A stretch of DNA of 57,774 nucleotides from an uncultured delta proteobacterium. GTDB lineage: Bacteria > Myxococcota > UBA727 > VGSZ01. Within the stretch, counting starts at the first letter, position 1. Every line of letters begins with the position of its first letter. Shown in pieces: positions 1 through 44,637 of this stretch. The notes below the pieces were generated by a model. The model was given only the letters and a program-made list of their open reading frames with translations. It did no database searches and was not told the DNA's origin. A program made the translations under genes and the position numbers. Where the stretch lies: the NCBI GenBank assembly GCA_963775425.1, contig CAVZJB010000009.1, positions 336,616 through 394,389 of the forward strand, read 5' to 3'.

Positions 1-1085
1 GACGCGCCGGAGGCGCTGGCGGCGACGAGCGATGGGTCCGCGGCCACCGAGGCGTCGACGGCGATGGACGACGCGGCGCCCTCCACCGCGGCCGGCGGCG
101 TGAACAGGTCGTGGCCGCTGGTGCCGTCGAGCGCGACGCCTGCGCTGTGGACGGCGTTCATCTGGTTTGCGAAGTCGAACGCGGCCTGGTCGACGTTCTT
201 CTCGGCCGCGGCGAGCCCGCCGTCGCGCGCCTGCAACAGGCCGCCGATGGTCCCGCCGACCTGCGCGTTGTCGAGCACCTTGGCGGGCGCACCGTCGACG
301 CCGGTGGCGGTGAGCGCGAGGTGGCCGCGGTTTCCGGCGACGGCCCGGGTGCCGAAGGTCGCGGACTTGTCTCCCGCCACGAGGACCACGCTGCCGGTCT
401 GCACGTTCAGGTCGCCGTCCTGCTCGATGAGCTTTCCGCCGGTGAGCGCGGAGAGATCCTCGGCCGCCTTGCGGCGCGCGTCGAGGAGGTCGTTGGGCTC
501 GCCGCCGCCGGCGCGGGCCTTGCGCACCTCGGCGTTGAGGCGCGCGACGTTCTTGGCGAGGTCGGTCGCTTGCGCGGCCTCGCCTCCGAGCTGCCCGTCG
601 ACGGCGCGCCGGGCGCCGTCGAGCTCGGACGCCGACCGTTGAAACGTCTGCGCCACCTGTCCCGCGGCCGTGACGAACGCGCGCCGCGCGCCCGGATCGG
701 AGGGCTGCCGCGACAACTCGCGCACCGCGGAGAAGAAGTTGGCCAAGGTGGTCGGCAGGTTGAGCGGGTCGTCCGGGTCGAGCGACCTGACGGAGGTGAG
801 GGTCGAGGCCTGCGCGTCCGCGAACGCCGCGGCGCCGAGCGCGCCCGGCACCTGTGCCTCGAGGAAGCGGTCGCGCGCCTGGCTCACGGTGAGCACGTTC
901 ACGCCTTGGCCGATGAAGGCGCCGCCGAGCATGGCGGCCGGCAGCGCGGCGGTGAGCTCGGCGCGCTGGCGGGCGTAGCCGGGCGTCGACGCGTTGTCGA
1001 TGTTGTGGCTGGCGGTGGCGACGCCGACGCTCTGCGCGGAGAGGGAGCGCGCTGCGATGCTGAGTTGGGACAGCAGGTCGGTCAC
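1..1085 (-). CDS. flgK: flagellar hook-associated protein 1 FlgK, N-terminal ~360 codons (3' end beyond the left window edge)
   Basis: Absent from the ORF track because there is no in-window stop. Reverse-strand translation from GTG at ~1085 gives VTDLLSQLSIAARSLSAQSVGVATASHNIDNASTPGYARQRAEL, the conserved N-terminal segment of the flagellin/hook-associated family, and later GTSGHDLFTPP typical of FlgK. A GGAGGG sits 4-5 nt upstream, overlapping the flgN stop. Lies directly downstream of flgM-flgN. GC3 is high in this frame. Confidence 0.85.
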   Translation of the reverse strand, partial: MTDLLSQLSIAARSLSAQSVGVATASHNIDNASTPGYARQRAELTAALPAAMLGGAFIGQGVNVLTVSQARDRFLEAQVPGALGAAAFADAQASTLTSVRSLDPDDPLNLPTTLANFFSAVRELSRQPSDPGARRAFVTAAGQVAQTFQRSASELDGARRAVDGQLGGEAAQATDLAKNVARLNAEVRKARAGGGEPNDLLDARRKAAEDLSALTGGKLIEQDGDLNVQTGSVVLVAGDKSATFGTRAVAGNRGHLALTATGVDGAPAKVLDNAQVGGTIGGLLQARDGGLAAAEKNVDQAAFDFANQMNAVHSAGVALDGTSGHDLFTPPAAVEGAASSIAVDASVAADPSLVAASASGA

Positions 1086-1094
1086 GTCACCCTC

Positions 1095-1550
1095 CTAGGC
1101 TTGGGTCCTCGTCGAGGACGGGAGAGACGCGGCTCTCGCCTCGCCACCGCGTCCGTATGCTTGAGGGGCAGGGAAGAGCGCCGCGAGGTAGGCGCGCACG
1201 ACGGCGCGCGCGCGGGCGACCATCGCGTGACGGCGCGCGTCGCTGGCGGTGAGATCGCGGACGAGAGCGCGGACGCGTCCGATCTTGCTCCGGATGGCGT
1301 CGACGGCGTCGGGGCTCGTCGCAGAGAGGGCGTCGAGCGTGGGCTCGCGACCCGAGCGGCGCGCCTCCTCTTCGACGGCGGACAGGACGCTGCGCTCGAG
1401 CGCGGCCAGTCGCGCGCGGACCTCGCCGCGCTCCACGGCCCACCGGGCGAGCGCCGCGACGTCCGGCTTGTGCCGTTCTTGATCGATGGAGGCCTCGAGC
1501 GTGCGCACGATCTCGTCGAGGTCCTGCAGCGCGCGCTCGAGGGTGGTCAT
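1095..1550 (-). CDS. flgN: flagellar export chaperone FlgN-like protein
   Basis: Internal ATG of the 264-aa minus ORF (MTTLERALQDLDEIVRTLEASIDQERHKPD). 151 aa, helical. Start overlaps the flgM stop (ATGA). Position between flgM and flgK matches the canonical flgMN-flgKL arrangement. The upstream part of the ORF-track reading is Arg/Pro-rich wrong-frame text. Confidence 0.6.
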   Translation of the reverse strand: MTTLERALQDLDEIVRTLEASIDQERHKPDVAALARWAVERGEVRARLAALERSVLSAVEEEARRSGREPTLDALSATSPDAVDAIRSKIGRVRALVRDLTASDARRHAMVARARAVVRAYLAALFPAPQAYGRGGEARAASLPSSTRTQA

Positions 1551-1858
1551 GGGGTCACCGCGGCGCCCGGGTGTTCGTCGAGGGACGCCTCCACGCCCTC
1601 GAGGAGATCGGACGTCTCGAGCATGCGGGCCGCGATGCGGCCGGGGTCGGGTCGATAGGTGCCGTTGCGCACAGCGAGGGCCAGGACCCTCATGCGCTCC
1701 GCGCGCGCCTGCTTCTCTTTGACCAGGGAGGTGGTGACGGCGCGCTCCGTCCGGTCGAACGAGACGCGGTCGCCCGGGGGCTTCGCGGCTTCGCGCGGAT
1801 CGGCTGTGCGCGTCACGGGTCGTGCTTCGAGAGCGGGGAGGGGGCTGTTGATCTTCAC
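1547..1858 (-). CDS. flgM: anti-sigma-28 factor FlgM
   Basis: 103 aa, MKINSP... with C-terminal VRNGTYRPDPGRIAARMLE resembling the FlgM C-terminal sigma-28-binding motif. Overlaps flgJ stop and flgN start by 4 nt. Confidence 0.8.
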   Translation of the reverse strand: MKINSPLPALEARPVTRTADPREAAKPPGDRVSFDRTERAVTTSLVKEKQARAERMRVLALAVRNGTYRPDPGRIAARMLETSDLLEGVEASLDEHPGAAVTP

Positions 1859-2598
1859 GGCTTCGAGTCCTCACCCGAGTCTTCGACACGGGCGGGGCGG
1901 ACCTTTAGGGTGGATGTGGGATCCGGCGGCCGGCGCCACCGCGCGGCGTGCGCGTTGGGATCCACGGGAGTCCCGTGGATCCGAGCCTCGACATGGACGT
2001 GCGGTCCCGTGGATCTGCCCGTGGAGCCCACATCTGCCACCACCTGGCCGGCCTCCACGCGCTGGCCCCGCGCGACGAGCAGCTTCTCGGCGTGCGCGTA
2101 GCGGGTGACGACGCCGTCGTCGCCCTCCACCTCGACGGCGAGCCCGTAGCCGCCCTCGCGCCCGGCGGCCCGGACCACGCCCCCCGCGAGCGCGTGGATC
2201 GGGGTGCCGGCGGGCGCCGCGATGTCGATGCCCTCGTGAAACGCGGCGTGTCCGTCGATGGGGTCGCGCCGCGGGCCGAAGGGGCTCGTGACGTGGCCGC
2301 GCCCGGCGAGCAGCGCCTCCTCGAGTCCCGCCGCGCCCGCGGCCGCCGCCGGCAGGCCGCCCGCGCCGCGGTGAGGCGCGGGCGGGGCCTCGTGCGCCCC
2401 GCCGCCGAGCGAGCGCTCGACGGCGCCGGCGAGCCCGAGGCCGCCGGCCTTGGCCACGGCGTTGGCGATGACGTCGACGAACATGTCGCCGTAGACGTGG
2501 GCGCCGCTGTCCTTGCTCCCGAAGACCTTGGCCTCGCGCAGCAGTTGCCGCAAGAGCACCGCCTCGAGCTGCTGGGCTGCGTCGTGCACCGTCTTCAT
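1855..2598 (-). CDS. flgJ: FlgJ-like protein: N-terminal rod-binding domain fused to an M23 peptidase domain
   Basis: 247 aa. N-terminus AAQQLEAVLLRQLLREA matches the FlgJ rod-binding domain. C-terminus SPFGPRRDPIDGHAAFHEGIDIAAPAGTPIHA ... GYGLAVEVEGDDGVVTRYAHAEKLLVARGQRVEAGQVVADVGSTGRSTGPHVHVEAR is an M23/LytM peptidase fold with the HxxxD and HxH metal-ligand arrangement. Sits between flgI and flgM. Confidence 0.85.
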   Translation of the reverse strand: MKTVHDAAQQLEAVLLRQLLREAKVFGSKDSGAHVYGDMFVDVIANAVAKAGGLGLAGAVERSLGGGAHEAPPAPHRGAGGLPAAAAGAAGLEEALLAGRGHVTSPFGPRRDPIDGHAAFHEGIDIAAPAGTPIHALAGGVVRAAGREGGYGLAVEVEGDDGVVTRYAHAEKLLVARGQRVEAGQVVADVGSTGRSTGPHVHVEARIHGTPVDPNAHAARWRRPPDPTSTLKVRPARVEDSGEDSKP

Positions 2599-3696
2599 TC
2601 ACATCACCACAATCTCGGCGTCGACGGCGCCGGCGGCCTGCATGGCCTGCAGGATGGCGATGACGTCGCGCGGCGTGGCCCCGAGGACGTTGAGCGCCGC
2701 CACGAGCTCGTCGACGGTGGACGCGGCGGGCACGGCCTTGGCGGCGCCCGAGCCCTCTGTGACGTCGAGCTGCGCGCGGTTCGTCACCGCCGTGCGCCCG
2801 CCCGAAAACGGGCCCGGCTGCGACACCAGCGTGTCGCCCGCCACCGCCACCTGGAGGTCGCCGTGCGCGACGACCACCGGTCGGATACGCACGCCCTCGC
2901 CGGCCACGATGGTCCCGGTGCGCTCGCTGATGACGATGCGCGCGCGGCCCACGGCGTCGACCTCGAGGTCTTCGATCTTCGCCAGCACGTCCATGGCCTC
3001 GTCGCTGCCGCGGTCGATCTCGACGGCGGCGGGGTCGGTGGCGCGCGCGCGCGTTCCGCCGAGGGCGGAGTTGACGGCGTCGGCGATCTTCTTGGCGGTC
3101 TGGATGTCCGGCCGGCGCAGCGCGAGCACGAGCGGGCCGGCGTCGAGGTCGGGGCGCACCGCGGCCTCGACGACGCCGCCCGAGGGCACGCGGCCCGACG
3201 CGGTGTCGTTTCGTTGCACACGCGAGCCCGCGGCTTCGACGAGGACGCCGCCGGTCTGTACCGGGCCCTGCGCGGTGGCGTAGACCTTCCCGTCGGCGCC
3301 CACGAGCGGCGTGACGACGAGCGTTCCGCCCACGAGGGAGCGGGCGTCGCCGAGGGAGCTGACGGTGACGTCGAGGTGGGCGCCCGGCCGCATGAACGTC
3401 GGCAGCGTCGCCGTCACCATCACGGCGGCGACGTTGCGCGATCGGATCTGGCCGGGCTCCACGCGCACGCCGAGGCGCCCGAGCATCCCGCTCATCGACT
3501 GCTGCGTGAACAGGACGCGCGCGCTGTCGCCGGTGCCGGCGAGGCCGACCACGAGGCCGTAGCCGAACAACGCGTTGTCGCGGACGCCGCGCACGTCGAC
3601 GATGTCCTTGACGCGCGACTTGCCGTTGGCGGTCGGTGCGCCCGCCGCCGGCGCGGCGAGGAGAGCGAGGGCGACGGTGAGGAGGGCGGCGCGCAT
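2599..3696 (-). CDS. flgI: flagellar P-ring protein FlgI
   Basis: 365 aa starting MRAALLTVALALLAAPAAGA (signal peptide), from an internal ATG of the 579-aa ORF. Contains FGYGLVVGLAGTGD and the C-terminal ELVAALNVLGATPRDVIAILQAMQAAGAVDAEIVVM, both typical of FlgI. The upstream 214 codons of the ORF-track reading are Arg-rich junk. Confidence 0.95.
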   Translation of the reverse strand: MRAALLTVALALLAAPAAGAPTANGKSRVKDIVDVRGVRDNALFGYGLVVGLAGTGDSARVLFTQQSMSGMLGRLGVRVEPGQIRSRNVAAVMVTATLPTFMRPGAHLDVTVSSLGDARSLVGGTLVVTPLVGADGKVYATAQGPVQTGGVLVEAAGSRVQRNDTASGRVPSGGVVEAAVRPDLDAGPLVLALRRPDIQTAKKIADAVNSALGGTRARATDPAAVEIDRGSDEAMDVLAKIEDLEVDAVGRARIVISERTGTIVAGEGVRIRPVVVAHGDLQVAVAGDTLVSQPGPFSGGRTAVTNRAQLDVTEGSGAAKAVPAASTVDELVAALNVLGATPRDVIAILQAMQAAGAVDAEIVVM

Positions 3697-4394
3697 CAAA
3701 ACGGCCACAGGAAGTGGAGGAAGCGGGGCACGACGGGCTCCGTGGTGTTGTCGGTGACGACGCCCTGGCCGACGAACTCGATCTCGGCCTCGGCGATCTT
3801 GGACGACGCGATGCTGTTTTGTTGGTCGATGTCGACGGGCCGGACGATGCCGGAGACGTAGAGGTGGTGCTCCTCGGCGTTCACGAGGATCACGCGGTGA
3901 CCCTCGATCATGAGGTTGCCGTTGGGCATCACCTGCTTCACCACGGTGGAGACCGTGGCCACCAGGCGCTCCTTGCGGTTGGTGCTGCCGCCGCCCTGAA
4001 AGGTGCCGTCGGTGGTCGCCTGCGCGGTGGAGGCCACGTCGTTTCCCGTGGGGATGAGCGGGCCGATGAGGGGCACCGCGCTGAGACCGAGCGCGGTGTT
4101 GCTGTGCCGCTCGACGTCGGTGTCGGCGGAGCGCTCGGCGTCGGCGACCTCCTCCACGCGCACGACGACGACGTCGTTGACGCGAAAGGCGCGCGCGTCG
4201 ACGAACAGGCCGGCGCCGAGCTCGCCGTCGCGCCACAGGCTGCCGGTGGTCACGGGGCGCGCGTCGGTCGCCTGCGCCTTGGGCAGCTCGATGGTGCGCT
4301 TCTTCGGCGCGTAGGGCGCGATGTGCGCGGGCGCGCACGCGGCGAGGGCGCCGGCGACGAGCACCGCGGCGGCGCTGGCGATCCGGAGGATCAT
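3696..4394 (-). CDS. flgH: flagellar L-ring lipoprotein FlgH
   Basis: Internal ATG (MILRIASAAAVLVAGALAAC) gives a lipoprotein signal with an LAAC lipobox. Body has GSLW...GDVVVVRVEE...NLMIEGHRVILVNAEEHHLYVSGIVRP, diagnostic of FlgH. Stop overlaps flgI ATG by 1 nt. GAGGTG lies 7 nt upstream of the start. Confidence 0.92.
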   Translation of the reverse strand: MILRIASAAAVLVAGALAACAPAHIAPYAPKKRTIELPKAQATDARPVTTGSLWRDGELGAGLFVDARAFRVNDVVVVRVEEVADAERSADTDVERHSNTALGLSAVPLIGPLIPTGNDVASTAQATTDGTFQGGGSTNRKERLVATVSTVVKQVMPNGNLMIEGHRVILVNAEEHHLYVSGIVRPVDIDQQNSIASSKIAEAEIEFVGQGVVTDNTTEPVVPRFLHFLWPF

Positions 4395-4702
4395 CGGCGC
4401 ACCTCGACGACGAGGTCGCCGCCCGACAGGTGCCCCGCCACGCGCTTGCCGCTGCGGAGCATGGCGCACACGGGCTGCACCTCGTCGCGCGGGCAGGCGA
4501 CGGTGCGGCCGTGGTCGACCAGGGTGAGCGCGCCGATGTGCACCACGATGCGCACGAGCATGTTGCGCGGCACGTGCTTCGGCGCGGGCGATGTGGCCGT
4601 CGCCGCCGGCTTCACGGCCGCGGGGCGTGGGGCCCTTGCGTGCGTGGACGGCGCGAGGGCGAGCATCAGGGGGACGGCGACGGCCGCGAGCAAGGCGCTC
4701 AT
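4391..4702 (-). CDS. flgA: small FlgA-like periplasmic P-ring assembly chaperone (SAF-domain-only form)
   Basis: 103 aa with signal peptide MSALLAAVAVPLMLALAPSTHA. C-terminal GKRVAGHLSGGDLVVEVRR resembles the FlgA C-terminal SAF domain. Position between flgG and flgH matches flgFGAHI loci. Assignment rests mainly on synteny. Confidence 0.5.
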   Translation of the reverse strand: MSALLAAVAVPLMLALAPSTHARAPRPAAVKPAATATSPAPKHVPRNMLVRIVVHIGALTLVDHGRTVACPRDEVQPVCAMLRSGKRVAGHLSGGDLVVEVRR

Positions 4703-4706
4703 GAGC

Positions 4707-5471
4707 TCACCTCAAGTTGCTCAGACGCTGGAGCATCTGGTCGGCGCTCTGGATGACCTTCGAGGACATCTCGTAGGAGCGCTGCGCGGTGATGAGGTCG
4801 ATCATCTCCTCGACGGTCTTCACGTTGGCGCCCTCGAGCATCCCCTGCTGCAGGGTCCCGGCGCCGTCGCTGCCGGGCGCGGTGATGAGCGGCTCGCCGC
4901 TCGCCTCCGTCGCCTTCAGCATGGTGTCTCCGAGCGCCTGGAGGCCGCCGGGGTTCGCGAACACGGCGATGTCGAGCTGGCCGAGCACCTGCGGCGCGTC
5001 GCGCCCCGGGACCGTGGCGCTGACGCGCCCGTCGCGGTCGATGGTGACGGACGTGGCGTCCTCGGGGACCTCGATGCCGGGCTCCATGAGCAGGCCGTTT
5101 TGCGTCACGAGCTGCCCGGTGCCATCGACGCGCAGGTTCCCCGCGCGCGTGTACGCGACCTCGCCGTCGGGCGTGCGCACCTGGAAGAACCCGTTGCCCT
5201 GGATGGCGACGTCGAGCGGGTTCTGCGTGTTGATGAGGTCGCCCTGGCCGAAGTCGCGCGTGGTGGCCGCCACCCGCACGCCGAGGCCGCTCTCGAGCGG
5301 CGCCGGCTGACCCGCGGGCGCCGCGAGCTGCTCGACGAGGAGATCTTCGAACTCCGCGCGCGCCTTCTTGAAACCCGTGGTGGTCGCGTTCGCGAGGTTG
5401 TTCGCGACCACGTTCATCTTGGTCTCTTGCGCGATCATGCCGGTGGCGGCGATGGACAAAGAACGCATCAT
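4707..5471 (-). CDS. flgG: flagellar distal rod protein FlgG
   Basis: 254 aa from internal ATG (MMRSLSIAATGMIAQETKMNVVANNLANATTTGFKK ... VEEMIDLITAQRSYEMSSKVIQSADQMLQRLSNLR), a full-length FlgG signature. Start overlaps the flgF stop (ATGATG). Confidence 0.95.
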   Translation of the reverse strand: MMRSLSIAATGMIAQETKMNVVANNLANATTTGFKKARAEFEDLLVEQLAAPAGQPAPLESGLGVRVAATTRDFGQGDLINTQNPLDVAIQGNGFFQVRTPDGEVAYTRAGNLRVDGTGQLVTQNGLLMEPGIEVPEDATSVTIDRDGRVSATVPGRDAPQVLGQLDIAVFANPGGLQALGDTMLKATEASGEPLITAPGSDGAGTLQQGMLEGANVKTVEEMIDLITAQRSYEMSSKVIQSADQMLQRLSNLR

Positions 5472-6166
5472 GCGCGGATCCTCCCGATCTCGGCCGCGCG
5501 CTGATCGAGCGAGCGCGACGTTTGAATGGCTTGCATCGCGTGGTCGTAGGCGCGCTGCGCGCTCACGAGGTTGACGGTGGCGTCGAGCGCTGAGGCGTTG
5601 CTGCCCTCGAGCTCCCCGCTGTGCACGCGGGCCTGCACCGGCTCCGCCGCCGCCGGATCCGCCGGCGCGACCATGGTGGGCGCGACGCGGACGACCTCGC
5701 CGCCGAGGCGCGCGAGCAGGAGCGAATCGACGACGGCGCCGTTTTGCAGCACGCGCCCCTGCGCGTCGATGCTGACGTCGCCGGCGCCGGGTGTGACGAT
5801 GACGGGGTTGCCCGACGCGCCGAGGACGGCGTGACCGGCGGAGAGGAGCTGGCCTTCGGCGTCTATCTGCAGGGCGCCGTCGCGGGTGAAGCCGCCGTCG
5901 ACGCCGAGCCAGACGCCCTCGTCGAGGCGCACGTCGAGCGGCCGGCCGGTGGTGGTGGTGGGACCCTCGCGTACGTCGACGCCGGTGTCGGCGGCGGCGA
6001 CGTACGCGGGGCCGCTCGGCGCCTCCTTTGGCAGGAACGCCTCGAAGCGCGGCGTCTCCGCGCGGAAGCCGGGCGTCTCTGCGTTGCTGAGGTTGTCGGC
6101 GATGGCGTCGAGCTGACGGAGCCTCGCGCTCGCGCCGGCCATGCCGATGTAGATGCCGTCGGTCAT
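5468..6166 (-). CDS. flgF: flagellar proximal rod protein FlgF
   Basis: 232 aa: MTDGIYIGMAGASARLRQLDAIADNLSNAETPGFRAE ... LVSAQRAYDHAMQAIQTSRSLDQRAAEI, the rod/hook N- and C-terminal heptad segments. First gene of the minus-strand flgFGAHIJMNK run. Confidence 0.92.
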   Translation of the reverse strand: MTDGIYIGMAGASARLRQLDAIADNLSNAETPGFRAETPRFEAFLPKEAPSGPAYVAAADTGVDVREGPTTTTGRPLDVRLDEGVWLGVDGGFTRDGALQIDAEGQLLSAGHAVLGASGNPVIVTPGAGDVSIDAQGRVLQNGAVVDSLLLARLGGEVVRVAPTMVAPADPAAAEPVQARVHSGELEGSNASALDATVNLVSAQRAYDHAMQAIQTSRSLDQRAAEIGRIRA

Positions 6167-6275: not shown

Positions 6276-6674
6276 ATGGGACTCGACCCGGTCTTGAAGG
6301 TCCGCGCCGCCGCCGAGCTCGCCGCGCGCCGCCGCCTCGCCGCCGCCGTGAAGGCGGCTGAGGACGCGCGCCGCGTCGCCGAGGAGGCGCGCGCGCTGGT
6401 GATGAAAGCCGAGAGCGCCGGCGGCGCCGCGTGGCTCATCGAGGTGCACGACGTGGGACATCGTCGCTCCGTCGATGCCCTCACGCGCGCCGAACAGGAC
6501 CGCGCCCGCGCCGAGAGCGCCGCCGACCAGGTCCGCGGCGCCCACGTCGAGGCGCGCATGCACCTCCGCGTCATCGAGCGCGTCGTCGAAGAGCGCGATC
6601 TCGAGGCGCGCCGCGAGGCCGCGCGCAAAGAGCAGCGCGAGCAAGACGAGCGCTCCGCCGCCCGCTTCTCCTGA
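6276..6674 (+). CDS. FliJ-like coiled-coil protein (candidate flagellar export component), lone plus-strand gene between two minus-strand operons
   Basis: Internal ATG of the 158-aa plus ORF (MGLDPVLKVRAAAELAARRRLAAAVKAAEDARRVAEEARALV ... EARREAARKEQREQDE). Pattern LDPVLKVR + REAxRKEQREQDE recalls the FliJ N- and C-terminal heptads. GC3 is strongly biased in this frame, whereas the antisense frame is Ser/Arg-rich. fliJ is missing from its usual place after fliI. Confidence 0.5.
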   Translation: MGLDPVLKVRAAAELAARRRLAAAVKAAEDARRVAEEARALVMKAESAGGAAWLIEVHDVGHRRSVDALTRAEQDRARAESAADQVRGAHVEARMHLRVIERVVEERDLEARREAARKEQREQDERSAARFS

Positions 6675-11504: not shown

Positions 11505-11514
11505 CGGGGCTTCC

Positions 11515-11540
11515 GTGTTCACGACTCGTGCCACGAGCGC
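11515..11540 (-). promoter_or_regulatory. conserved 15-nt element TGGCACGaGTCGTGA upstream of flhA (copy 1 of 2)
   Basis: Minus-strand reading ...GCTCGTGGCACGAGTCGTGAACACGGAAGCCCCG-ATG. Contains a TGGCAC (-24-like) hexamer and the inverted repeat CACGA-g-TCGTG. The same element recurs at ~12497-12520 upstream of the second fliA-family gene. Coordinates approximate. Confidence 0.4.
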
Positions 11541-11661
11541 GGCGCTCGAGGAGCGCATGACAGCGCGACGTCGTCATCGCGCCGACGCTTTCGTGCGCGC
11601 AAACATTTGACGCCGCGCCATGCTGTTGACGACGACGAATGCCGCGGTGACGACGACGAAT

Positions 11662-14318: not shown

Positions 14319-14330
14319 TAGTGGCCCGGC

Positions 14331-23762: not shown

Positions 23763-23870
23763 CGCGCCGATGACCGATCCGACGTGTCAGCACCAGCCGC
23801 TCCGAGGAACGCCTTGGTCGCCGACCTCTCGGCGGTGGAGCCACGCGCGCTCGCGAGCGTGGAGCGGTTG

Positions 23871-38241: not shown

Positions 38242-39512
38242 CCCTGTTTTCCTCCCTCTACATCGGCGCCAGCGGCCTCGCGGCCAACAGCCTCGACCTG
38301 TCCGTGGTCGGCGACAACATCGCCAACTCGAACACCATCGGCTTCAAGGGGAGCCGCGCGGCGTTCGAGGACGTGCTCGGGCAGAACCTCATCGGCGGCT
38401 CCGGCGAGCTCGGGATGGGCGCGCGCCTCCAGGCGGTGCAGAAGCTGCTCCAACAGGGCGCGATCACGTCGACGGGCATCGCCACCGACCTCGCCATCCA
38501 GGGCAACGGCTTCTTCCAGGTGAAGGGCCCCGATGGTCCGCTCTACACGCGCGCGGGCAACTTCACGCTCGACCAAAGCGGGTTCCTCGTGAACCTCGAC
38601 GGCCTGCGCGTCCAGGGCTTCGCCGGCGACGTCAACGGCGTCCTCGGCCGCTCCCTCTCCGACCTTCAGCTCGCGGACGCCACCACGCCGCCCAAGGCCA
38701 CGACCTCGGCGGTGGTCCGCGCCAACCTCGACTCCGGGGCGTCCGTGCTGCCGCCGTTCGACATCAACGACGTCAGCGGCACGTCGAACTTCTCGACGAG
38801 CGTCACCGTCTTCGACTCGCTCGGTGCGTCGCACCAGGTCGACCTCCACTTCCGCAAGGCGGCCGACGGCTCCTGGGAGTGGCACGCGGTCACCGACGGC
38901 AGCAACGTCGACGGCGGCACCGCCGGCACCCCCGTCGAGATCGGCGGCGGCACCATGACCTTCGACGGCGACGGCAACCTCGTCGACGCCACCGGCACTG
39001 CCGTCAGCTTCGACCCGGCCGGCGCCGCCGGCGCCCAGACCATCAACTTCGACCTCGGCGACCCGACGTCGACGGGCGGCACCGGCGCAGCCGGCATCGT
39101 GCAGCAGGCGGGGACGTCGGCGGTGCGCTTCCTCTCCCAGGACGGCTTCTCCGCGGGCACGCTCGCGGGCGTGAAGGTGGACGAGCAGGGAAACGTGGTC
39201 GGCACCTTCACCAACGGCGAAACGCGCACCCTCGCGCAGGTGGCGCTCGCGGACTTCCCGGCGGCGGACCAGCTCGAGCGTGTCGGCGGCAACCTCTATC
39301 GCGCGCTGCCCGACGCCGGGGACGTCAACGTCGGCGCGCCCGGCAGCGGCGGTCGCGGCACCATCGTGGCGGGAGCGCTCGAGCAGTCCAACGTCGACCT
39401 CGCCTCGGAGTTCGTGCGCATGATCGTCGCTCAGCGCAGCTTCCAGGCGAACAGCAAGACCATGACGACGGCGGACTCGCTGCTCGCCGAGCTCATCCAG
39501 ATCAAGAGGTGA
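38238..39512 (+). CDS. flgE: flagellar hook protein FlgE
   Basis: 424 aa: MTLFSSLYIGASGLAANSLDLSVVGDNIANSNTIGFKGSRAAFEDV ... SEFVRMIVAQRSFQANSKTMTTADSLLAELIQIKR. Confidence 0.95.
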   Translation: MTLFSSLYIGASGLAANSLDLSVVGDNIANSNTIGFKGSRAAFEDVLGQNLIGGSGELGMGARLQAVQKLLQQGAITSTGIATDLAIQGNGFFQVKGPDGPLYTRAGNFTLDQSGFLVNLDGLRVQGFAGDVNGVLGRSLSDLQLADATTPPKATTSAVVRANLDSGASVLPPFDINDVSGTSNFSTSVTVFDSLGASHQVDLHFRKAADGSWEWHAVTDGSNVDGGTAGTPVEIGGGTMTFDGDGNLVDATGTAVSFDPAGAAGAQTINFDLGDPTSTGGTGAAGIVQQAGTSAVRFLSQDGFSAGTLAGVKVDEQGNVVGTFTNGETRTLAQVALADFPAADQLERVGGNLYRALPDAGDVNVGAPGSGGRGTIVAGALEQSNVDLASEFVRMIVAQRSFQANSKTMTTADSLLAELIQIKR

Positions 39513-39516: not shown

Positions 39517-40017
39517 GTGAACAAGATCATCGTCGCCGTCCTCGGGGTGAACACGCTCCTCGCCGCCGCCGCGCTCGCGCTCCCGTTGCTGCGCGCGTCC
39601 GCCGGCGCGCCTGCGACGGCCGAGGCCGAGGGGGCGGAGGCCACCGGGCACGCCGACAACGGCGACAAGGCCGCGCCCGTCGGCGCCGGGAAGGACCGCG
39701 CCGGCGAGCCGGGTCCGGGGCCCATGGTCTCGGTCGACAACATCGTCGTTCACCTGCGAAATCCGGAGATGGACCGCTACGCGCGGGTGGCCTTCAACGT
39801 CGAGCTGTCGAAGCCCGACGACCTCGCGTCGTTCCAGTCGGCCCTGCCGCGCGTGCGTGACGCGATGATCTCGCTGTTGAGCGACCGCACCGCCGAGCAG
39901 CTCGCGGGCTCGGCCGGGCTCAAGGCGCTCAAGGACGACGTCACCGCGCGCACCTCCGCCGTCATCGGCGAGGGCCATGTCCGCGGCGTCTACATCACGG
40001 ACTTCGTGGTTCAATAA
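39517..40017 (+). CDS. fliL: flagellar basal-body-associated protein FliL
   Basis: 166 aa from GTG. Single N-terminal TM, then VSVDNIVVHLRNPEMDRYARVAFNVELSK ... VRGVYITDFVVQ (FliL C-terminal signature). Confidence 0.85.
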   Translation: MNKIIVAVLGVNTLLAAAALALPLLRASAGAPATAEAEGAEATGHADNGDKAAPVGAGKDRAGEPGPGPMVSVDNIVVHLRNPEMDRYARVAFNVELSKPDDLASFQSALPRVRDAMISLLSDRTAEQLAGSAGLKALKDDVTARTSAVIGEGHVRGVYITDFVVQ

Positions 40018-40967
40018 TGGCGACCCTCGACGAAGCCGAAGTGCGGGCGATCGACGAAGCCATGGCGATGTCGTCGCCGGCGGAGCGCTCGGCGCGCCCG
40101 CACGCCCTCGTGCAGCCCGACAACGGCGCGCGCGCTTTGCTCGTCGGCGTCACGCGCGTCGCCGAGGCCGCGAGCCGCGCGGTGGAGTGCGGTCTGCGCG
40201 TCGCGCTGCGCGCGGCGTGGGACGTGACGGCGCGGGAGCCCCGCGTCGTCGACGGCGTCGTGGTCCCGCCCGGCACCCGCGTGCTCGGCCTCGTGCTCGG
40301 CGACGGCCGAGGCGCGGAGCAGGGCGCGCTCTTCATCGACGAGGCCGCCGGTCACCGGGTCGCGCTGTCGTCGCTCGGCGCCAACGCCGACGACGCCCCG
40401 CCGCCGCCGCGCCTGAGCCGTGTGGACCGGCAGCTCGTGAGCCGCGTGCTGCGGACGGTGCTCGAGGAGCTCGCTCCGACACTTCCCTGCACCGGCGCCG
40501 TCTGTGACACCGGCGGCGACATCGAGCGCGCGCTCGAAGACGTGCGCGCCGGCAAGGCGGTCATCCTCGAGATGGACGCGCGCGGGCCGTTCGCGCTGCG
40601 CGTCACGGTGGTGCTGCCCTCGGCCTGGACGGGGGCGGCGGCGCCGCGCTTGCCGTCGGCGACGCGCTCGCTGGCCGAGCACGTGCCCGAGGTGGAGATC
40701 GATCTCGTGGTGGAGCTCGGGAAGCTCGCCTTGACGCTGGAGCAGCTCGTGGCGCTGCGGCCCGGCGACCTGCTGCCGCTGTCGACGACGGAGAAGTCGG
40801 CGCTGCCGGTGTTCCTCCAGGGGGAGCGCCGCTTCACCGCCAGACCCTTGGCGCACGACGGCCGGATCGCCGTCGAGATCGTCAAGAATGACGACGCCTC
40901 GCCGATTGAGGTTGTGAGCGCCGGCGGAGATCCGTCGCGCGCGCCCAACGAGAGAGGCGAGCGATGA
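40017..40967 (+). CDS. fliM: flagellar motor switch protein FliM (divergent N-terminus, SpoA-type C-terminal domain)
   Basis: 316 aa. C-terminal LGKLALTLEQLVALRPGDLLPLSTTEKSALPVFLQGERRFTARPLAHDGRIAVEIV is the FliM/FliN surface-presentation-of-antigens fold. Position between fliL and fliN. Confidence 0.8.
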   Translation: MATLDEAEVRAIDEAMAMSSPAERSARPHALVQPDNGARALLVGVTRVAEAASRAVECGLRVALRAAWDVTAREPRVVDGVVVPPGTRVLGLVLGDGRGAEQGALFIDEAAGHRVALSSLGANADDAPPPPRLSRVDRQLVSRVLRTVLEELAPTLPCTGAVCDTGGDIERALEDVRAGKAVILEMDARGPFALRVTVVLPSAWTGAAAPRLPSATRSLAEHVPEVEIDLVVELGKLALTLEQLVALRPGDLLPLSTTEKSALPVFLQGERRFTARPLAHDGRIAVEIVKNDDASPIEVVSAGGDPSRAPNERGER

Positions 40968-41317
40968 TCGAAAAGACCGACGACGCGGGCCCGTTCGAAG
41001 CGAGGACGGACCCCGCCATGCCGCTGACGCCCGCGAGCGTGCGCTCGCAGGAGGCGGAGCCCTTCGACCGCATCGAGATGTTCCTCGACGTCGGGCTGGA
41101 CGTCCGCGTGGAGCTGGGGCGCGCGAGCATCAGCATCCAGCGGGCGATGCGGTTGCAGGAGGGCTCGGTCATCGAGCTCGACAAGATCGCCGGCGACCCG
41201 CTGAACGTCGTCGTCAACGGGCGCATCGTCGCTCGTGGCGAGGCCGTCGTCATCGGCGAGCGCCTGGGCGTTCGCATCCTCGAAGTCCTCCCCGCCGAGC
41301 GCACCCGCGCCCGCTGA
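40964..41317 (+). CDS. fliN: flagellar motor switch protein FliN
   Basis: 117 aa: DVRVELGRASISIQRAMRLQEGSVIELDKIAGDPLNVVVNGRIVARGEAVVIGERLGVRILEV is the SpoA domain. ATGA overlap with fliM. Confidence 0.9.
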   Translation: MIEKTDDAGPFEARTDPAMPLTPASVRSQEAEPFDRIEMFLDVGLDVRVELGRASISIQRAMRLQEGSVIELDKIAGDPLNVVVNGRIVARGEAVVIGERLGVRILEVLPAERTRAR

Positions 41318-41329: not shown

Positions 41330-41908
41330 ATGAACGCCCTGTTGCTCGCGGTCGCCCTGGCGGCGACCGCTCCGGATGCCCGCGTGACGCGAGAGCTCGA
41401 TGAGGCCCTCGCCGTGGCCCCCGCCGCGCCCCCCACGACGGCGCCGCTCGCTGCGGCGCCCCCCACGACGGCGCCGCTCGCAACGGCGCGCCCGACGACG
41501 GAGCCGCCGCCGCTCGTGGTCGGGGCGCGCGCGCCCGAGACGGGCGCGTTCCCGTGGGTGGCCGGCGGAGGGCTGGTGGCGCTCGCGGGTGCCGCGTGGC
41601 TCGCCGCACGCAGGAAGCGGGGCGCGCGCGGTTCGCTCTCGGTGGTGGAGAGCACGGCGCTCGGCAAGGGCCGCGCGGTGGTGATCGTCGACGTCGAGGG
41701 CCGCCGGATCCTCCTCGGAGTGACCGACCACGGCATCACCCTGCTGTCATCGCTGCCGGCGCACGAGGGCGAAGCGGCGCCGGCGCGCGAGGCCCCGCTG
41801 CACGATGAGCGTCGGCCGTCGTTCGACGACGCGCTCTCCTTCACCGACGAGGTCACCGACGAGGACACGCGGCTGCGCCAGAAGCTCGCCGCCGGGAGGA
41901 GCTCGTGA
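41330..41908 (+). CDS. fliO: flagellar biosynthesis protein FliO (FliZ-type), with an internal tandem-repeat linker
   Basis: 192 aa. Signal/TM N-terminus. ALGKGRAVVIVDVEGRRILLGVTDHGITLLSSL is the FliO core. Precedes fliP with a 4-nt overlap. Confidence 0.8.
   Translation: MNALLLAVALAATAPDARVTRELDEALAVAPAAPPTTAPLAAAPPTTAPLATARPTTEPPPLVVGARAPETGAFPWVAGGGLVALAGAAWLAARRKRGARGSLSVVESTALGKGRAVVIVDVEGRRILLGVTDHGITLLSSLPAHEGEAAPAREAPLHDERRPSFDDALSFTDEVTDEDTRLRQKLAAGRSS
41426..41512. repeat. three tandem 30-bp units (two near-identical, one degenerate) encoding APPTTAPLAA repeats inside fliO
   Basis: GCGCCCCCCACGACGGCGCCGCTCGCTGCG / GCGCCCCCCACGACGGCGCCGCTCGCAACG / GCGCGCCCGACGACGGAGCCGCCGCCGCTC, read directly from the sequence. 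Confidence 0.85.
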
Positions 41909-42573
41909 ACGCCGCCGACGCCATCCAGATCGGCGTGCAGGGCGGCGGCTCTGCGGCGGTGAAGGTCTTCCTCCTCCTCACGGTGCTTTCGTTCGCGCCC
42001 GCCATCGTCGTCTCCGTCACGTCGTTTACGCGCATCGTCATCGTGCTGTCGTTCCTGCGCCAGGCGCTGGGCACCCCGCAGCTCCCGCCGAACCCCGTTG
42101 TCATCGGCCTGGCGATCTTCCTGAGCGCGTTCATCATGCGCCCCACTCTCGAGCGGCTGCACGACGACGCCGTCGCCCCCTACCTCGACGACAAGATCGG
42201 CTACCAGGAGGCGCTCGACAAAGGCGGCGCCGACCTCAAGGGCTTCATGTTGCCGCAGACGCGCGAAGAGGATCTCGCGCTGTTCTACGACATCGCCGGC
42301 GAGCCGCGCCCCGCGAGCGTCGACGAGATCTCGACGTCCATCGCGGTCCCCGCGTTCATGGTCTCCGAGCTCACCACCGCGTTTCGTATGGGGCTCACCA
42401 TCTTCATCCCGCTCCTCGTCGTCGACCTGCTCGTCTCCGCTGTGCTCATGTCGCTCGGCATGATGATGGTGCCGCCGCAGATGATCTCCCTGCCGCTCAA
42501 GATCGGCGTGTTCCTCCTCGCCGACGGCTGGCACATCGTCGTGCTCAACCTGGCCCGGAGCTTCCATGGGTGA
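41905..42573 (+). CDS. fliP: flagellar export apparatus protein FliP
   Basis: 222 aa: IVIVLSFLRQALGTPQLPPNPVVIGLAIFLSAFIMRPT ... TAFRMGLTIFIPLLVVDLLVSAVLMSLGMMMVPP. Confidence 0.95.
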   Translation: MNAADAIQIGVQGGGSAAVKVFLLLTVLSFAPAIVVSVTSFTRIVIVLSFLRQALGTPQLPPNPVVIGLAIFLSAFIMRPTLERLHDDAVAPYLDDKIGYQEALDKGGADLKGFMLPQTREEDLALFYDIAGEPRPASVDEISTSIAVPAFMVSELTTAFRMGLTIFIPLLVVDLLVSAVLMSLGMMMVPPQMISLPLKIGVFLLADGWHIVVLNLARSFHG

Positions 42574-42829
42574 CATGCCCGGCGGGCTCGTCCGCGAAGC
42601 GTTCGCGCTGCTCGCGCTCGCGGGTGGCCCCTTCGTCGGCGCCCTCCTCGTCGCCGGCCTCATCGTCGGCGTCCTTCAGGCGGCCACGCAGATCAACGAC
42701 CCCGCCGTCAGCTTCCTGCCGCGCATCCTCGTCGGCATCCTCGTCGCGTGGCTCGCGGGCCCCATGGTGCTGGAGCGCCTGGCGACGTTCTTCGCCAGCG
42801 CCCTCGAGCGCGTCGGGTCCGGCCCGTGA
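42566..42829 (+). CDS. fliQ: flagellar export apparatus protein FliQ
   Basis: 87 aa, two-TM hairpin. PFVGALLVAGLIVGVLQAATQINDPAVSFLPRIL. Confidence 0.92.
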   Translation: MGDMPGGLVREAFALLALAGGPFVGALLVAGLIVGVLQAATQINDPAVSFLPRILVGILVAWLAGPMVLERLATFFASALERVGSGP

Positions 42830-43569
42830 CGGCGTCCGCGGCGCTCGCGTTCGGCTTCCTGCTCGTGCGGGCCACCTCCCTGTTCATGGTGGCGCCCATC
42901 TTCGGGGCCAAAGCCGTGCCCGTGCGGGTTCGCCTCGGCCTCGCCGTCGTCGTCGCAGCCTCCGCCTTCGCCCTCGTCGCGCACGGCGCCGCGGTTCGCT
43001 CCCTCGACGCCACCAGCCTGTTTGGCTCCCTCGCCAGCGAGCTGGCGCTCGGCCTCGTCGCCGGCACCGTCCCCCGCGTCTTCATCGACGCCGCCAACGC
43101 CGCCGGCCAGACCCTCGGCCTGTCCGCGGGCCTCGGCTTCGGCGCCACCATCGACCCCGTCCACGGCGCGTCGTCGACGGCGGTGGGCGAGCTCACCTCG
43201 CTGGTCGCGCTCGGCGCCGCCGTCGCCCTCGGCCTTCACCGCGAGGTGGTCGCGTGGTTTTGCGCGAGCGCCGAGCAGATCCCGCCCGGCACCGCCGTGG
43301 ACCTGTGGGGGTTCACCGACGCCGCCGTGACGGCGTCGCTGTCGTCGGTGGCGTTGGCCGTGCGCCTCGCGTTTCCGGTGATGGCCGCGACGACGTGCGT
43401 GCACCTCGTCCTGGGCATCGTGGGGCGCGCCGTGCCGCAGATGAGCTTGTCCAACGTCGGCTTCGCCGTGCCGCTCCTCGCGGGCGGCTGGGCGTTGTCC
43501 ACGTGCGCCAACGACATGGCCGCCATCGCGGCGCGCGCCGCGTTGGACGCGCTGCACCGGCTGTCCTGA
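42826..43569 (+). CDS. fliR: flagellar export apparatus protein FliR
   Basis: 247 aa from GTG overlapping the fliQ stop (GTGA). Polytopic: FLLVRATSLFMVAPIFGAKAVPVRVRLGLAVVVAASAF ... PVMAATTCVHLVLGIVGRAVPQMSL. Confidence 0.9.
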   Translation: MTASAALAFGFLLVRATSLFMVAPIFGAKAVPVRVRLGLAVVVAASAFALVAHGAAVRSLDATSLFGSLASELALGLVAGTVPRVFIDAANAAGQTLGLSAGLGFGATIDPVHGASSTAVGELTSLVALGAAVALGLHREVVAWFCASAEQIPPGTAVDLWGFTDAAVTASLSSVALAVRLAFPVMAATTCVHLVLGIVGRAVPQMSLSNVGFAVPLLAGGWALSTCANDMAAIAARAALDALHRLS

Positions 43570-43581
43570 GGGAGCGAACCC

Positions 43582-44637
43582 ATGTCGGACGCTCCGGAGA
43601 AAGACGAAGACGCGACCGAGGACCCAAGTGACCGGCGCCTCGAAGAGGCGCGGCGCGAGGGCCGCATCCCGCTCAGCCGCGAGGCGGTGCACACCGGGGC
43701 GCTGGTCATCGGCGCCGCGGTGCTCGCGGCGGCCGCGCCGTCGCTCACGACGGCGCTCGTGACATCGATGCGCGGCGCGCTCTCCTCACCGGGGCTGCTG
43801 TTTCAGATGTGCGCGCGGGCGGCGCTCCTGGGCGTCGGCGTGGTCGCGGCGGTGGCGGCGGCGGCGGTGGTCGCCACGATGGTGCAGACCAAGGGCGGCG
43901 TGTGGCCGCAGCTCCTCGTGCCCAAGGGCGATCGGCTCTTCTCGACGCAACGTCTCACGCACACCTTTTCGCGCGAAGGCGCCGTCGACATCGGCGTGAG
44001 CGGGCTCAAGGCGCTCGGCCTCCTCGCGGTAGGCCTCGCGTCGCTGCGCCCGCACCTCGGCGAGCTGCGCAACCTGTTGGTGGCGCCGGTGGCGGGCATC
44101 CTTCCGGGCATCGCGCACGTGCTCGCGGGCGTGGTCCCGCGTGTCGTGCTGGCGTTGGTGGCGCTGGCGGCGCTCGACGTGTTCCTCGTGCGACGCCGCT
44201 ACACGAACAAGATGCGCATGAAGCGCGAGGACTTGAAGCGCGAGCACAAGGAGGACGAGGGCGACCCGCAGATCAAAGGCAAGCGGAAGCGCAAGCACCG
44301 CGAGCTCGTGCAGGGGCGCGTCGCCGTCGAGGTCCCGCGCGCGGACGCCATCGTCGTGAACCCGACGCACATCGCCGTGGCCATCCGCTACCGAAAGAAG
44401 TCCGACACGGCGCCGCGCGTGACGGCCAAGGGCAAGGGGCGTCACGCCGAGGTGATGCGCGAGCTGGCGGCGCAGCACGGCATCCCCGTCGTGCGTGACA
44501 TCCCCCTCGCGCGCTTCCTGGTGAAGCGCGTGAAGGTCGGGCAGGAAGTGCCGAGCGACGTCTACAAGTCCGTCGCCGCGGTGTTGGCGTACGTCTACAA
44601 GATCACCGGCAGGGTCCCCGGCACCGGCGCGGAGTGA
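43582..44637 (+). CDS. flhB: flagellar export switch protein FlhB
   Basis: 351 aa. N-terminal TM domain. Cytoplasmic domain with the NPTH autocleavage motif (IVVNPTHIAVAIRY) and RELAAQHGIPVVRDIPLARFL. Confidence 0.95.
   Translation: MSDAPEKDEDATEDPSDRRLEEARREGRIPLSREAVHTGALVIGAAVLAAAAPSLTTALVTSMRGALSSPGLLFQMCARAALLGVGVVAAVAAAAVVATMVQTKGGVWPQLLVPKGDRLFSTQRLTHTFSREGAVDIGVSGLKALGLLAVGLASLRPHLGELRNLLVAPVAGILPGIAHVLAGVVPRVVLALVALAALDVFLVRRRYTNKMRMKREDLKREHKEDEGDPQIKGKRKRKHRELVQGRVAVEVPRADAIVVNPTHIAVAIRYRKKSDTAPRVTAKGKGRHAEVMRELAAQHGIPVVRDIPLARFLVKRVKVGQEVPSDVYKSVAAVLAYVYKITGRVPGTGAE

Follow-up and report, generated by a model that had tools for sequence, protein, structure and literature searches.

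A probable core flagellar supercluster with a rearranged Anaeromyxobacter-type layout in an uncultured, high-GC member of the Myxococcota

The closest described relative of the locus studied here is the 55.7-kb flagellar cluster of Anaeromyxobacter dehalogenans 2CP-C, whose original description also recorded swimming in strain K and argued that myxobacteria descend from a flagellated ancestor (Thomas et al., 2008, PMC2330069). In that cluster fliJ, flgN, fliT, flgA, flgJ and fliK were listed as not found (PMC2330069), and in 2021 flagellar assembly genes were also reported from Zodletone metagenome-assembled genomes (MAGs) of Myxococcota. Here we analyze a 57,774-nt stretch of DNA from an uncultured delta proteobacterium (GenBank assembly GCA_963775425.1, contig CAVZJB010000009.1, forward-strand positions 336,616 to 394,389), hereafter the window, in whose own coordinates all positions below are given. 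Positions 1-44637 contain two divergent arms of flagellar genes. These arms very probably make up the core flagellar supercluster of an uncultured, high-GC member of the Myxococcota, one that is homologous to and partly collinear with the Anaeromyxobacter cluster but belongs to a separate FlhA clade and is rearranged.

The GC content of the window is 72%, and long shadow open reading frames (ORFs) fill all six frames. Genes were therefore called from codon statistics, using a codon-usage log-odds model trained on obvious genes together with interval scheduling, and each call was scanned against NCBIfam or Pfam hidden Markov models (HMMs). A prior sequence-only reading had placed a near-complete set of 37 flagellar genes in positions 1-44637. 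We reproduce this number approximately (about 37), with roughly 28 genes at or near curated HMM thresholds or carrying unambiguous E-values and some eight softer calls, namely FlgN, FlgM, FlgB, the FlgJ N-terminus, FliJ, FliK, the protein called 'FlgA' and the middle domain of FliM. The earlier calls of a FlgJ-M23 fusion, flbD-motAB, flhF-flhG and a YlxF-like gene were all correct, the identification of flgA is not justified, and an HDOD gene, a PilT/PilU-family ATPase, two sigma-54 activators and a PflA-like gene had gone unlisted. Read 5' to 3', the minus arm runs fliA#2-flhA-flhF-flhG-fliA#1 and then flgF-G-x-H-I-J(M23)-M-N-K. The plus arm spans 20.9 kb with intergenic gaps of at most 62 nt, from the HDOD gene to the end of flhB at 44637, in the order HDOD-pilT-like-flbD-motA-motB-EBP-pflA-like-flgB-C-fliE-F-G-H-I-ylxF-fliK-flgD-E-fliL-M-N-O-P-Q-R-flhB (EBP, enhancer-binding protein). 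All of the flagellar ORFs are intact with strong coding statistics, and their GC and codon statistics agree with those of the remainder of the window.

The set of flagellar genes is nearly complete. The export gate (FlhA, FlhB, FliP, FliQ, FliR, as well as FliO) and the ATPase complex of FliI and FliH all score above their HMM cut-offs, and the MotA/MotB stator and the FlgH/FlgI bushings are all matched by HMMs. Within the rotor and switch set FliF, FliG and FliN are clear, and FliM is matched through its FliMN_C domain only. Matches were likewise obtained for the axial proteins FlgC, FlgF, FlgG, FliE, FlgD, FlgE and FlgK, with FlgB falling 0.65 bits under its cut-off and FliK being assigned by position only. 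Non-flagellar type III secretion systems occur in Myxococcus. An injectisome was rejected here, given that FlhA (9429..11558, minus strand), the export gate protein, scores 789 bits with the flagellar model TIGR01398 (cut-off 772) as opposed to 560 bits with the SctV model, and that genes for the rod, hook, L/P-rings and stator occur together with those for FliA and FlgM.

For comparison we read the flhA neighborhood of A. dehalogenans 2CP-C (CP000251.1, about 1.55-1.58 Mb), which begins with a response regulator and an HDOD gene, followed by fliL-M-N-O-P-Q-R, flhB, flhA, flhF, flhG and fliA. After fliA come a GNAT-like gene, a FliJ gene on the opposite strand, flgF, flgG, a 207-aa gene, flgH, flgI, an M23 peptidase, flgM, a FlgN-like gene and flgK. 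The left arm of the window is collinear with this arrangement, including the oppositely oriented fliJ-like gene, at protein identities of 45-67% (FlhA 65%, FliP 67%, FlgI 60%, FlgG 58%). The two loci also have in common their phylum, high GC content, the fliL-M-N-O-P-Q-R-flhB order and a cluster-associated HDOD gene, and in both of them fliJ, flgN, flgA, flgJ and fliK are hard to annotate. However, flhB and flhA, which are adjacent in A. dehalogenans, lie about 32 kb apart on opposite strands in the window, where a second FliA paralogue heads the flhA operon and no che genes are embedded. The flgA-position gene is half as long as in A. dehalogenans, and FliM lacks the detectable PF02154 domain of its A. 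dehalogenans counterpart. Extra to the window are the PilT-like ATPase, a receiver-less sigma-54 activator and a non-flagellar insert of about 10 kb, and its FlhA falls in a distinct clade.

The large flagellar operons found in Desulfuromonadales, and those of the fla/che type known from Bacillus subtilis, have the same flgB-flgC-fliE-F-G-H-I-(J)-ylxF-fliK-flgD-flgE and fliL-M-N(Y)-O-P-Q-R-flhB orders, flbD beside motAB, and a contiguous flhF-flhG-fliA (sigD). In contrast to these operons, the window encodes the diderm set (FlgH, FlgI, FlgF), sigma-54 activators and an M23 domain in FlgJ, and it places motAB-flbD before flgB, whereas flbD follows flgE in the Bacillus/Desulfuromonadales type.

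The nearest non-identical relatives of FlhA in a protein search are 77%, 74% and 73% identical, and at least 120 clusters lie at 61-77% identity. In a neighbor-joining FlhA tree, which is simple, has no support values and uses a single distant outgroup, the window groups with proteins P0002 (77%) and P0004 (73%) and with the loci L001 and L002 (71%), apart from a group of Anaeromyxobacter, 'Polyangia' and Myxococcaceae-MAG sequences. The window's clade shares the broken flhB/flhA junction and the second FliA upstream of flhA. L001 (JADZDP010000189, 'Deltaproteobacteria bacterium SJ783') and L002 (CAZONM010000061, 'uncultured Myxococcales') have the same split architecture, with a response regulator-HDOD-PilT-like-flbD-motAB-PflA-like-flgBC-fliEFG... 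arm divergent from fliA2-flhAFG-fliA1-flgFG-x-HIJ-MNK; they are without both sigma-54 activators, the MYXO-CTERM protease and the kinase/TPP (thiamine pyrophosphate) enzyme/KASIII/TIGR02265 insert of the window. The sequence-only reading had regarded the locus as uncommon and evolutionarily informative. With the A. dehalogenans cluster in print since 2008, the Zodletone MAGs since 2021 and the many FlhA clusters above, this view is not supported: clusters of this kind were already known from Anaeromyxobacter and are frequent among myxobacterial genomes from the environment. What is new here is a separate uncultured clade with a rearranged layout of the Anaeromyxobacter-type cluster.

The same reading had placed the contig in the Myxococcota, and this assignment is supported, because FlhA and an unrelated gene have only Myxococcota-type named neighbors and both HMM markers pass their thresholds. 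The named proteins among the top 120 FlhA matches all come from cultured Anaeromyxobacter species (about 65%) or from Anaeromyxobacteraceae, Myxococcaceae or Deltaproteobacteria MAGs. To guard against a transfer of the flagellar genes alone, we also searched with the housekeeping uracil-DNA glycosylase Ung (52155-53087). Ung and FlhA have their exact matches on one and the same 394-kb contig, and the only named near matches of Ung, at 70%, come from two MAGs, one labeled Myxococcota and the other Myxococcaceae. When the GTDB species representatives were scanned for FlhA with a restrictive, pattern-based search, this returned 12 loci, eight of them labeled Myxococcales, Myxococcaceae, Polyangia or Myxococcota, three 'Deltaproteobacteria' only (including the joint-closest L001) and one 'proteobacterium'; the last is 43% identical to the window's FlhA and the other eleven 55-71%.

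The first of the two markers is a matrixin-like zinc metalloprotease (14331..15062, plus strand; PF00413 37.5 bits, cut-off 24) with a HELGHALGLPD zinc motif. As had been proposed from its letters, it ends in a MYXO-CTERM tail (...GCNAAGG...LLLSLLAVRRRR), which has the expected layout of a C-terminal Cys, a Gly-rich stretch, a hydrophobic helix and an Arg cluster. The tail was read directly as GCNAAGGETTTVGAALLLSLLAVRRRRSSK, and the MYXO-CTERM model TIGR03382 matches residues 214-240 with 19.5 bits (cut-off 15.85). The HMM check suggested earlier thus stands with regard to the signal, though the accession it named, TIGR03901, gave no match to this protein at E<=0.01. NF041905, the model of the myxosortase-dependent MXAN_2677/2678 metalloprotease family, scores 39 bits, below its cut-off of 250. 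The second marker (20519..21118, plus strand) was correctly recognized as a TIGR02265/DUF2378 protein, scoring 65.6 bits with TIGR02265 (cut-off 25) and 79.3 bits with PF09536 (cut-off 22.2).

Several observations weigh against reading the locus as the core cluster of a flagellated member of the Myxococcota. HMM scans found no flagellin, FliD, FliS, FlgL or che genes in the 57.8-kb window, although flgK is truncated by the window edge and the remaining filament genes may lie outside. The evidence for FliK, FliJ, FlgN and FlgM is weak or positional, the FliM middle domain PF02154 is not matched even at E 0.1, and the flgA-position protein has half the length of its A. dehalogenans counterpart or less. 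Furthermore, two non-flagellar neighbors, a TPP enzyme and a calpain-like protease, are frameshifted, which points to some assembly error or gene decay; a consensus scan for sigma-54 (TGGCAC-N5-TTGC) and sigma-28 (TAAA-N15-GCCGATAA) promoters gave no convincing site upstream of the flagellar operons; and both the simple construction of the FlhA tree and the nature of the MAG labels, which are submitters' assignments, have to be kept in mind. Some of these points would suit a decaying relic, or a cluster re-purposed for example for secretion only, that yields no working flagellum: the divergent FliM middle domain, the flgA-position gene of 103 aa as against 207 aa in A. dehalogenans, the two frameshifted neighbors, the filament genes missing from the window and, outside it, the report that swimming is rarely seen in A. 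dehalogenans 2CP-C (PMC2330069). We nevertheless consider such a relic very unlikely, as the roughly 37 flagellar ORFs are intact with a strong coding signal, and the stator, L/P-ring and hook genes, which secretion would not need, are 50-70% identical across several lineages and therefore appear to be under purifying selection. The closest relative, L016, likewise has a short flgA-position gene (83 aa), so the short form is conserved and not a recent lesion.

A core cluster native to the Myxococcota also has to be weighed against a recent horizontal acquisition from a non-myxobacterial donor such as the Desulfuromonadota or Acidobacteriota, which would leave the locus uninformative on Myxococcota ancestry. 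The best matches of the Anaeromyxobacter flagellar genes in 2008 were scattered across several phyla (PMC2330069), lineage-specific inserts break the arms, and gene order varies between Myxococcota clades. This origin is nonetheless highly improbable. Among the matches listed, the named neighbors of FlhA are all of Myxococcota type down to 61% identity, and the best locus of the GTDB scan without a Myxococcota-type or 'Deltaproteobacteria' label is the one at 43%. The flagellar genes also equal the rest of the window in GC and codon statistics, and the left arm is collinear with that of Anaeromyxobacter down to small idiosyncratic genes. Hardly credible, finally, is a mis-binned or chimeric contig from outside the Myxococcota on which both markers mislead. 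The MYXO-CTERM match exceeds its cut-off by just 3.6 bits and NF041905 stays far under its own, but TIGR02265 passes by 40 bits, the markers and the flagellar genes share one contiguous window of uniform composition, and the independent genes for FlhA and Ung point to the same phylum through their named neighbors.

Turning to the individual genes, the minus arm is headed by fliA #2 (11748..12461; TIGR02479 210.5 bits, cut-off 189.6), a second FliA/WhiG sigma factor that opens the flhA operon, is 40% identical to fliA #1 and is conserved upstream of flhA in L001, L002 and two further relatives, L015 and L016. Downstream of flhA lie flhF (8344..9417; TIGR03499 179.9 bits, cut-off 174.15), encoding a GTPase of the signal recognition particle type for polar placement, and flhG (7439..8347), whose product, a MinD/ParA-type ATPase and flagellar-number regulator, is matched by MinD/ParA-type models only (E 5e-39 for the MinD family) and occupies the canonical flhF-flhG-fliA position. 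The sigma-28 gene fliA #1 (6747..7442; TIGR02479 188.3 bits, cut-off 189.6) is the orthologue of Anaeromyxobacter fliA, with 49% identity to A. dehalogenans FliA. Between it and flgF, on the opposite (plus) strand, a weak match to FliJ was found in a coiled-coil protein (6276..6674; TIGR02473 23.9 bits, cut-off 50.45; PF02050 17.9 bits); an oppositely oriented PF02050 gene occurs at the matching place in A. dehalogenans and L015. The rod genes follow on the minus strand, flgF (5468..6166; proximal rod) with 135.7 bits for TIGR02490, below the cut-off of 178.5, and 116 bits for TIGR03506 (cut-off 70.25), and flgG (4707..5459; distal rod) with 321 bits for TIGR02488 (cut-off 252.75).

The gene at the flgA position (4391..4702, minus strand) encodes a secreted protein of 103 aa that is placed by its location and matches no HMM. 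It is 48% identical to its L001 counterpart and aligns solely with the last 50 residues of the 207-aa A. dehalogenans protein (38% identity), and neither the window protein nor that of A. dehalogenans matches a FlgA model. The name FlgA is not justified for it. Next on the same strand are flgH (3696..4394; NF001301, E 1.9e-46) and flgI (2599..3696; NF003676 397 bits, cut-off 300) for the L- and P-rings, and a gene that joins a FlgJ-like rod-binding N-terminus (PF10135 21 bits, cut-off 25.1) to an M23 endopeptidase (1855..2598; PF01551 111 bits). An M23 gene comes after flgI in every Myxococcota locus we examined. The anti-sigma-28 gene flgM (1547..1858) is borderline, its PF04316 score of 25.0 bits being equal to the cut-off and TIGR03824 reaching 33 bits (cut-off 40.75), and the FlgN-like chaperone gene (1095..1550) is weak (PF05130 25.2 bits, cut-off 30.5), with a counterpart at the equal position in A. 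dehalogenans and relatives. The arm leaves the window within flgK (3..1085; hook-associated protein 1; TIGR02492 204 bits, cut-off 170.75), the 3' end of which lies beyond the edge. On a JGI contig that carries a homologue of the 411-aa PflA-like protein discussed below, a sigma-54 activator, a TPR protein, flgB-C, fliE-F-G-H-I, a 243-aa gene, a FliK gene matched by PF02120, flgD-E, flbD and motA are divergent from an arm ending in flgM-flgN-flgK-flgL. This order supports the FliK, FlgN and FlgM calls, and it suggests that flgL may be located just past the left edge of the window.

The plus arm, all of it on the plus strand, opens with the HDOD-domain gene (23784..24653, start approximate; PF08668 75.9 bits), which shares 53% identity with an ORF in L001 and 32% with the HDOD gene that adjoins fliL in A. 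dehalogenans. It is followed by the gene for the PilT/PilU-family ATPase (24704..25801; TIGR01420 332 bits, cut-off 319), directly upstream of flbD-motAB. In this ATPase the AIRNLIRE motif is degenerate, and the protein is 57-58% identical to its L001 and L002 counterparts at the matching position (about 6335-7444 in L001). The PilT-like/HDOD arrangement is kept in L001 and L002 and is absent from L015 and A. dehalogenans; the full module of response regulator, HDOD and PilT-like genes ahead of flbD-motAB was seen in the window, L001 and L002 only. The small FlbD/swarming protein (25824..26030; PF06289 76 bits) precedes the stator genes motA (26034..26789; PF01618 105 bits; PF20560) and motB (26776..27558), the latter with a plug (PF13677 71 bits) and an OmpA-like peptidoglycan-binding domain (PF00691 64 bits). 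The sigma-54 EBP that comes next (27615..28739) consists of an AAA+ domain from residue ~10 (PF00158 225 bits) and HTH_8 (PF02954) only, and thus lacks a receiver or any other sensory domain at its N-terminus. L001, L002 and L015 do not have it, but in another relative a 479-aa counterpart likewise stands ahead of the TPR gene and flgB; the clade has therefore both gained and lost this regulator.

Beyond the PflA-like gene (28740..29975) the arm continues with flgB (29972..30325), a proximal rod gene whose TIGR01396 score is borderline (58.4 bits, cut-off 59.05), flgC (30339..30743; PF06429, PF00460), fliE (30747..31061; PF02049 85 bits), the MS-ring gene fliF (31094..32701; PF01514 189 bits; PF08345 126 bits) and the rotor/switch gene fliG (32715..33758; FliG_N, FliG_M and FliG_C). 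The genes fliH (33821..34483; PF02108 68 bits) and fliI (34480..35865; export ATPase; PF00006 286 bits; PF18269 79 bits) lead to the YlxF-type gene (35858..36490) and to a 340-aa fliK candidate (36504..37526), a hook-length ruler gene. No HMM matches the latter, and its assignment draws on its position, its Ala/Gly/Pro-rich composition and the PF02120 gene at the matching position in a relative. The hook genes flgD (37555..38241; hook cap; PF13860, PF03963, PF13861) and flgE (38238..39512; PF07559, PF06429, PF22692, PF00460) are followed by fliL (39517..40017; PF03748 72 bits) and a divergent fliM (40017..40967). The FliM protein matches PF01052, the FliN-like C-terminal domain, with 54.5 bits and TIGR01397 with 42 bits (cut-off 219.6), and shares 24% identity with its A. 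dehalogenans counterpart across 116 aa. Last in the arm are fliN (40964..41317; PF01052 78 bits), fliO (41330..41908; PF04347 55.6 bits), fliP (41905..42573; PF00813 248 bits), fliQ (42566..42829; PF01313 68 bits), fliR (42826..43569; PF01311 143 bits) and flhB (43582..44637; PF01312 302 bits). The long antisense ORFs at 43786-46092 and 45074-46348 were discarded as shadow ORFs typical of DNA with 72% GC.

Two plus-arm proteins were interpreted mainly through predicted structure. The E-ring family FlgY/FlbB/MotE/YlxF is defined by an N-terminal signal peptide or transmembrane (TM) helix, a long alpha-helix and a C-terminal MgtE_N-like head; its homologues occur in 66% of flagellated species and mostly adjoin fliJ or fliK (PMC13023049). 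The 210-aa protein encoded at 35858-36490, between fliI and the fliK candidate, scores 21.5 bits with PF03448 (MgtE_N; gathering score 25.9) and 19.4 bits with NF047368 (FlbB; cut-off 110). Its AlphaFold (AF2) model, computed from the single sequence (pLDDT 76), shows a TM helix at residues 3-23, a disordered Pro-rich linker, a helix of about 70 residues (66-136) and a five-helix head (143-206). Among PDB structures, Foldseek ranks the FliF-YlxF integrative model 9a67_B first (E 4.4e-4), and MgtE N-domains and FliG come next. The protein thus resembles Campylobacter/Helicobacter FlgY, Bacillus YlxF and Borrelia FlbB, of the FlgY-PflA, YlxF and FlbB-FlcB systems, in its TM helix, long helix, MgtE_N-like head and location beside fliK (PMC13023049, PMC12222027), although the HMM scores of its head are below threshold. 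As modeled, it fits the definition of an E-ring protein of the YlxF/FlgY type.

The 411-aa protein encoded at 28740-29975 has no Pfam or NCBIfam match. It has 17 homologues, and wherever the neighborhood could be read (L001, L002, L015 and the P0256 contig) the context is flagellar, with the gene always between motB or the EBP gene and flgB. PflA is composed of an N-terminal beta-sandwich, a linker and 16 TPR motifs (PMC12222027). Similarly, the AF2 model of the window protein (pLDDT 86.8, pTM 0.84) starts with a signal peptide and a beta-sandwich (25-111), from which a linker leads to a superhelix of TPR helical repeats (130-409). Its top Foldseek match in the PDB is chain K of the Campylobacter jejuni periplasmic motor scaffold (9hmf_K; E 4.6e-5, TMq 0.31, 11% identity), a chain of 773 residues that is taken as PflA from its length only; the remaining matches are generic TPR proteins, and TPR folds match promiscuously. 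A sequence-profile search of the family against the PDB returned designed TPR proteins only, and no homologues of PflB, PflC, PflD, FlgP or FlgQ were seen in the window. The protein is about half the size of the PflA chain and has no detectable sequence similarity to it. Therefore, we describe it as PflA-like in predicted architecture and as no more than a possible homologue of PflA.

Established family roles suggest how these components would work together. Proteins of the rod, hook and junction would pass through the FliF MS-ring, exported by the FlhAB and FliOPQR gate together with the ATPase complex FliHI(J), while the FlgJ-like protein would open the peptidoglycan with its M23 endopeptidase instead of a muramidase, and FlgI and FlgH would form the P- and L-rings in a diderm envelope. 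MotAB stators, driven by protons or other ions and acting with FlbD and FliL, may then turn the FliG/M/N rotor, and the YlxF/FlgY-type E-ring and the PflA-like TPR protein would probably scaffold these stators. FlhF and FlhG are predicted to set polar placement and flagellar number. Tiered expression is probable, with sigma-54 activators acting early and the two FliA paralogues, checked by FlgM, acting late; because the promoter scan gave no convincing sites, we offer this hierarchy as an inference only. Overall, the analysis shows gene content, homology, synteny, taxonomic neighborhood and intact reading frames, and from these it is only inferred that the cluster would be expressed and assembled into a polar flagellum used for swimming.

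The locus does not overturn current understanding and adds one more well-resolved case to the evidence for widespread flagella in uncultured Myxococcota. A shared collinear cluster fits the 2008 proposal of a flagellated myxobacterial ancestor with loss in gliding lineages (PMC2330069). The locus also provides concrete candidates for the 'missing' Anaeromyxobacter genes, namely fliJ, flgN, flgJ, fliK and the flgA-position gene, and it adds structure-based evidence that the E-ring proteins of the YlxF/FlgY type, along with a TPR partner resembling PflA, occur in the Myxococcota. A bolder possibility, which we hold tentatively and judge to be rather unlikely, is that the window, P0002, P0004, L001 and L002 represent an undescribed, uncultured flagellated lineage of Myxococcota whose motor differs in specific ways from that of Anaeromyxobacter. 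If so, these differences would include a second FliA that split from the first long ago (40% identity) and serves the flhA operon specifically, a FliM that has diverged strongly, a minimal FlgA-position protein, a YlxF-type E-ring with a half-size PflA-like spoke and, in part of the clade, a response regulator-HDOD-PilT-like module co-operonic with the stators. Such a module could couple a retraction-type ATPase of type IV pili, or cyclic di-GMP (c-di-GMP)/phosphorelay signaling, to the stators, and it might, in a phylum noted for its gliding, act to switch cells between swimming and movement on surfaces.

The two arms are separated by a block at 12.7-23.7 kb (about 10 kb) that is a lineage-specific insertion. 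Within it only the single-domain response regulator (15391..15879, plus strand; REC matches) has counterparts in L001 (66%) and L002 (62%), in both of which it abuts the HDOD gene. On one side lie an NtrC-type regulator, the MYXO-CTERM protease and a small ORF, and on the other a histidine kinase, the frameshifted TPP enzyme, KASIII, the TIGR02265 protein, a small ORF and a hybrid kinase with REC and PAS domains. Both marker genes are thus, from this comparison of gene orders, passengers in lineage-specific inserts and not conserved parts of the cluster. The NtrC-type sigma-54-dependent response regulator (12698..14143, minus strand; TIGR01818, E 6e-126) is absent from L001 and L002. The long ORF 12698-14542 that contains it, antisense to the protease gene, was dismissed as a reason to doubt the latter: NtrC homology starts at residue 144 of this ORF, with an in-frame ATG near 14143, and the protease has both Pfam and MYXO-CTERM matches. 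The best sigma-54-like site (14303-14317) is also unpersuasive, since it lies 14 nt before the protease start codon and is thus too close. The TPP enzyme, of the acetolactate synthase family (17743-19393, plus strand), is split by a frameshift between its N-terminal domain (17743-18093; PF02776 134 bits) and its middle and C-terminal domains (18113-19393), with a G-run at about 18075-18090, and reflects either an assembly error or a pseudogene. The hybrid histidine kinase (21767-23668, minus strand) starts near 23668 with an N-terminal receiver domain (MHSVLLLVDDE...); extensions of its ORF to 24088 or 24349 are an antisense shadow over the HDOD gene, from which it is separated by about 115 bp of divergent intergenic DNA.

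Immediately to the right of flhB, two segments (45254-46854, minus strand, and 47015-50347, plus strand) encode a protein that is HD/HDOD-like, another with a DUF6901 match (202 bits) and a GAF-PAS-histidine kinase of 1110 aa that also has three receivers and part of a GGDEF domain. These genes may bring c-di-GMP/phosphorelay signaling beside the motility cluster. Further on, a calpain-type cysteine protease domain (PF00648; 50362-51722, minus strand) is spread over two ORFs, with profile positions 46-181 in 50625-51722 and 209-250 in 50362-50628, which is probably a second frameshift. A putative minus-strand ORF of high GC3 (51719-52154), its start tentative, reaches 4 nt into the start of the calpain-like gene and, in its upstream part, runs over a conserved extension at the N-terminus of ung; no family matches it. 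Scans of the window with Rfam and tRNA models gave no matches, and no rRNA, tRNA or ribosomal protein genes were found in it. At the right end of the window, a lower-GC (65%) stretch encodes a 999-aa protein (54378-57377, plus strand) that belongs to no Pfam or NCBIfam family and is matched by the PADLOC candidate defence model PDC-M26A (142 bits, E 5e-42) as well as by PDC-S02 models, making it a possible anti-phage defence gene.

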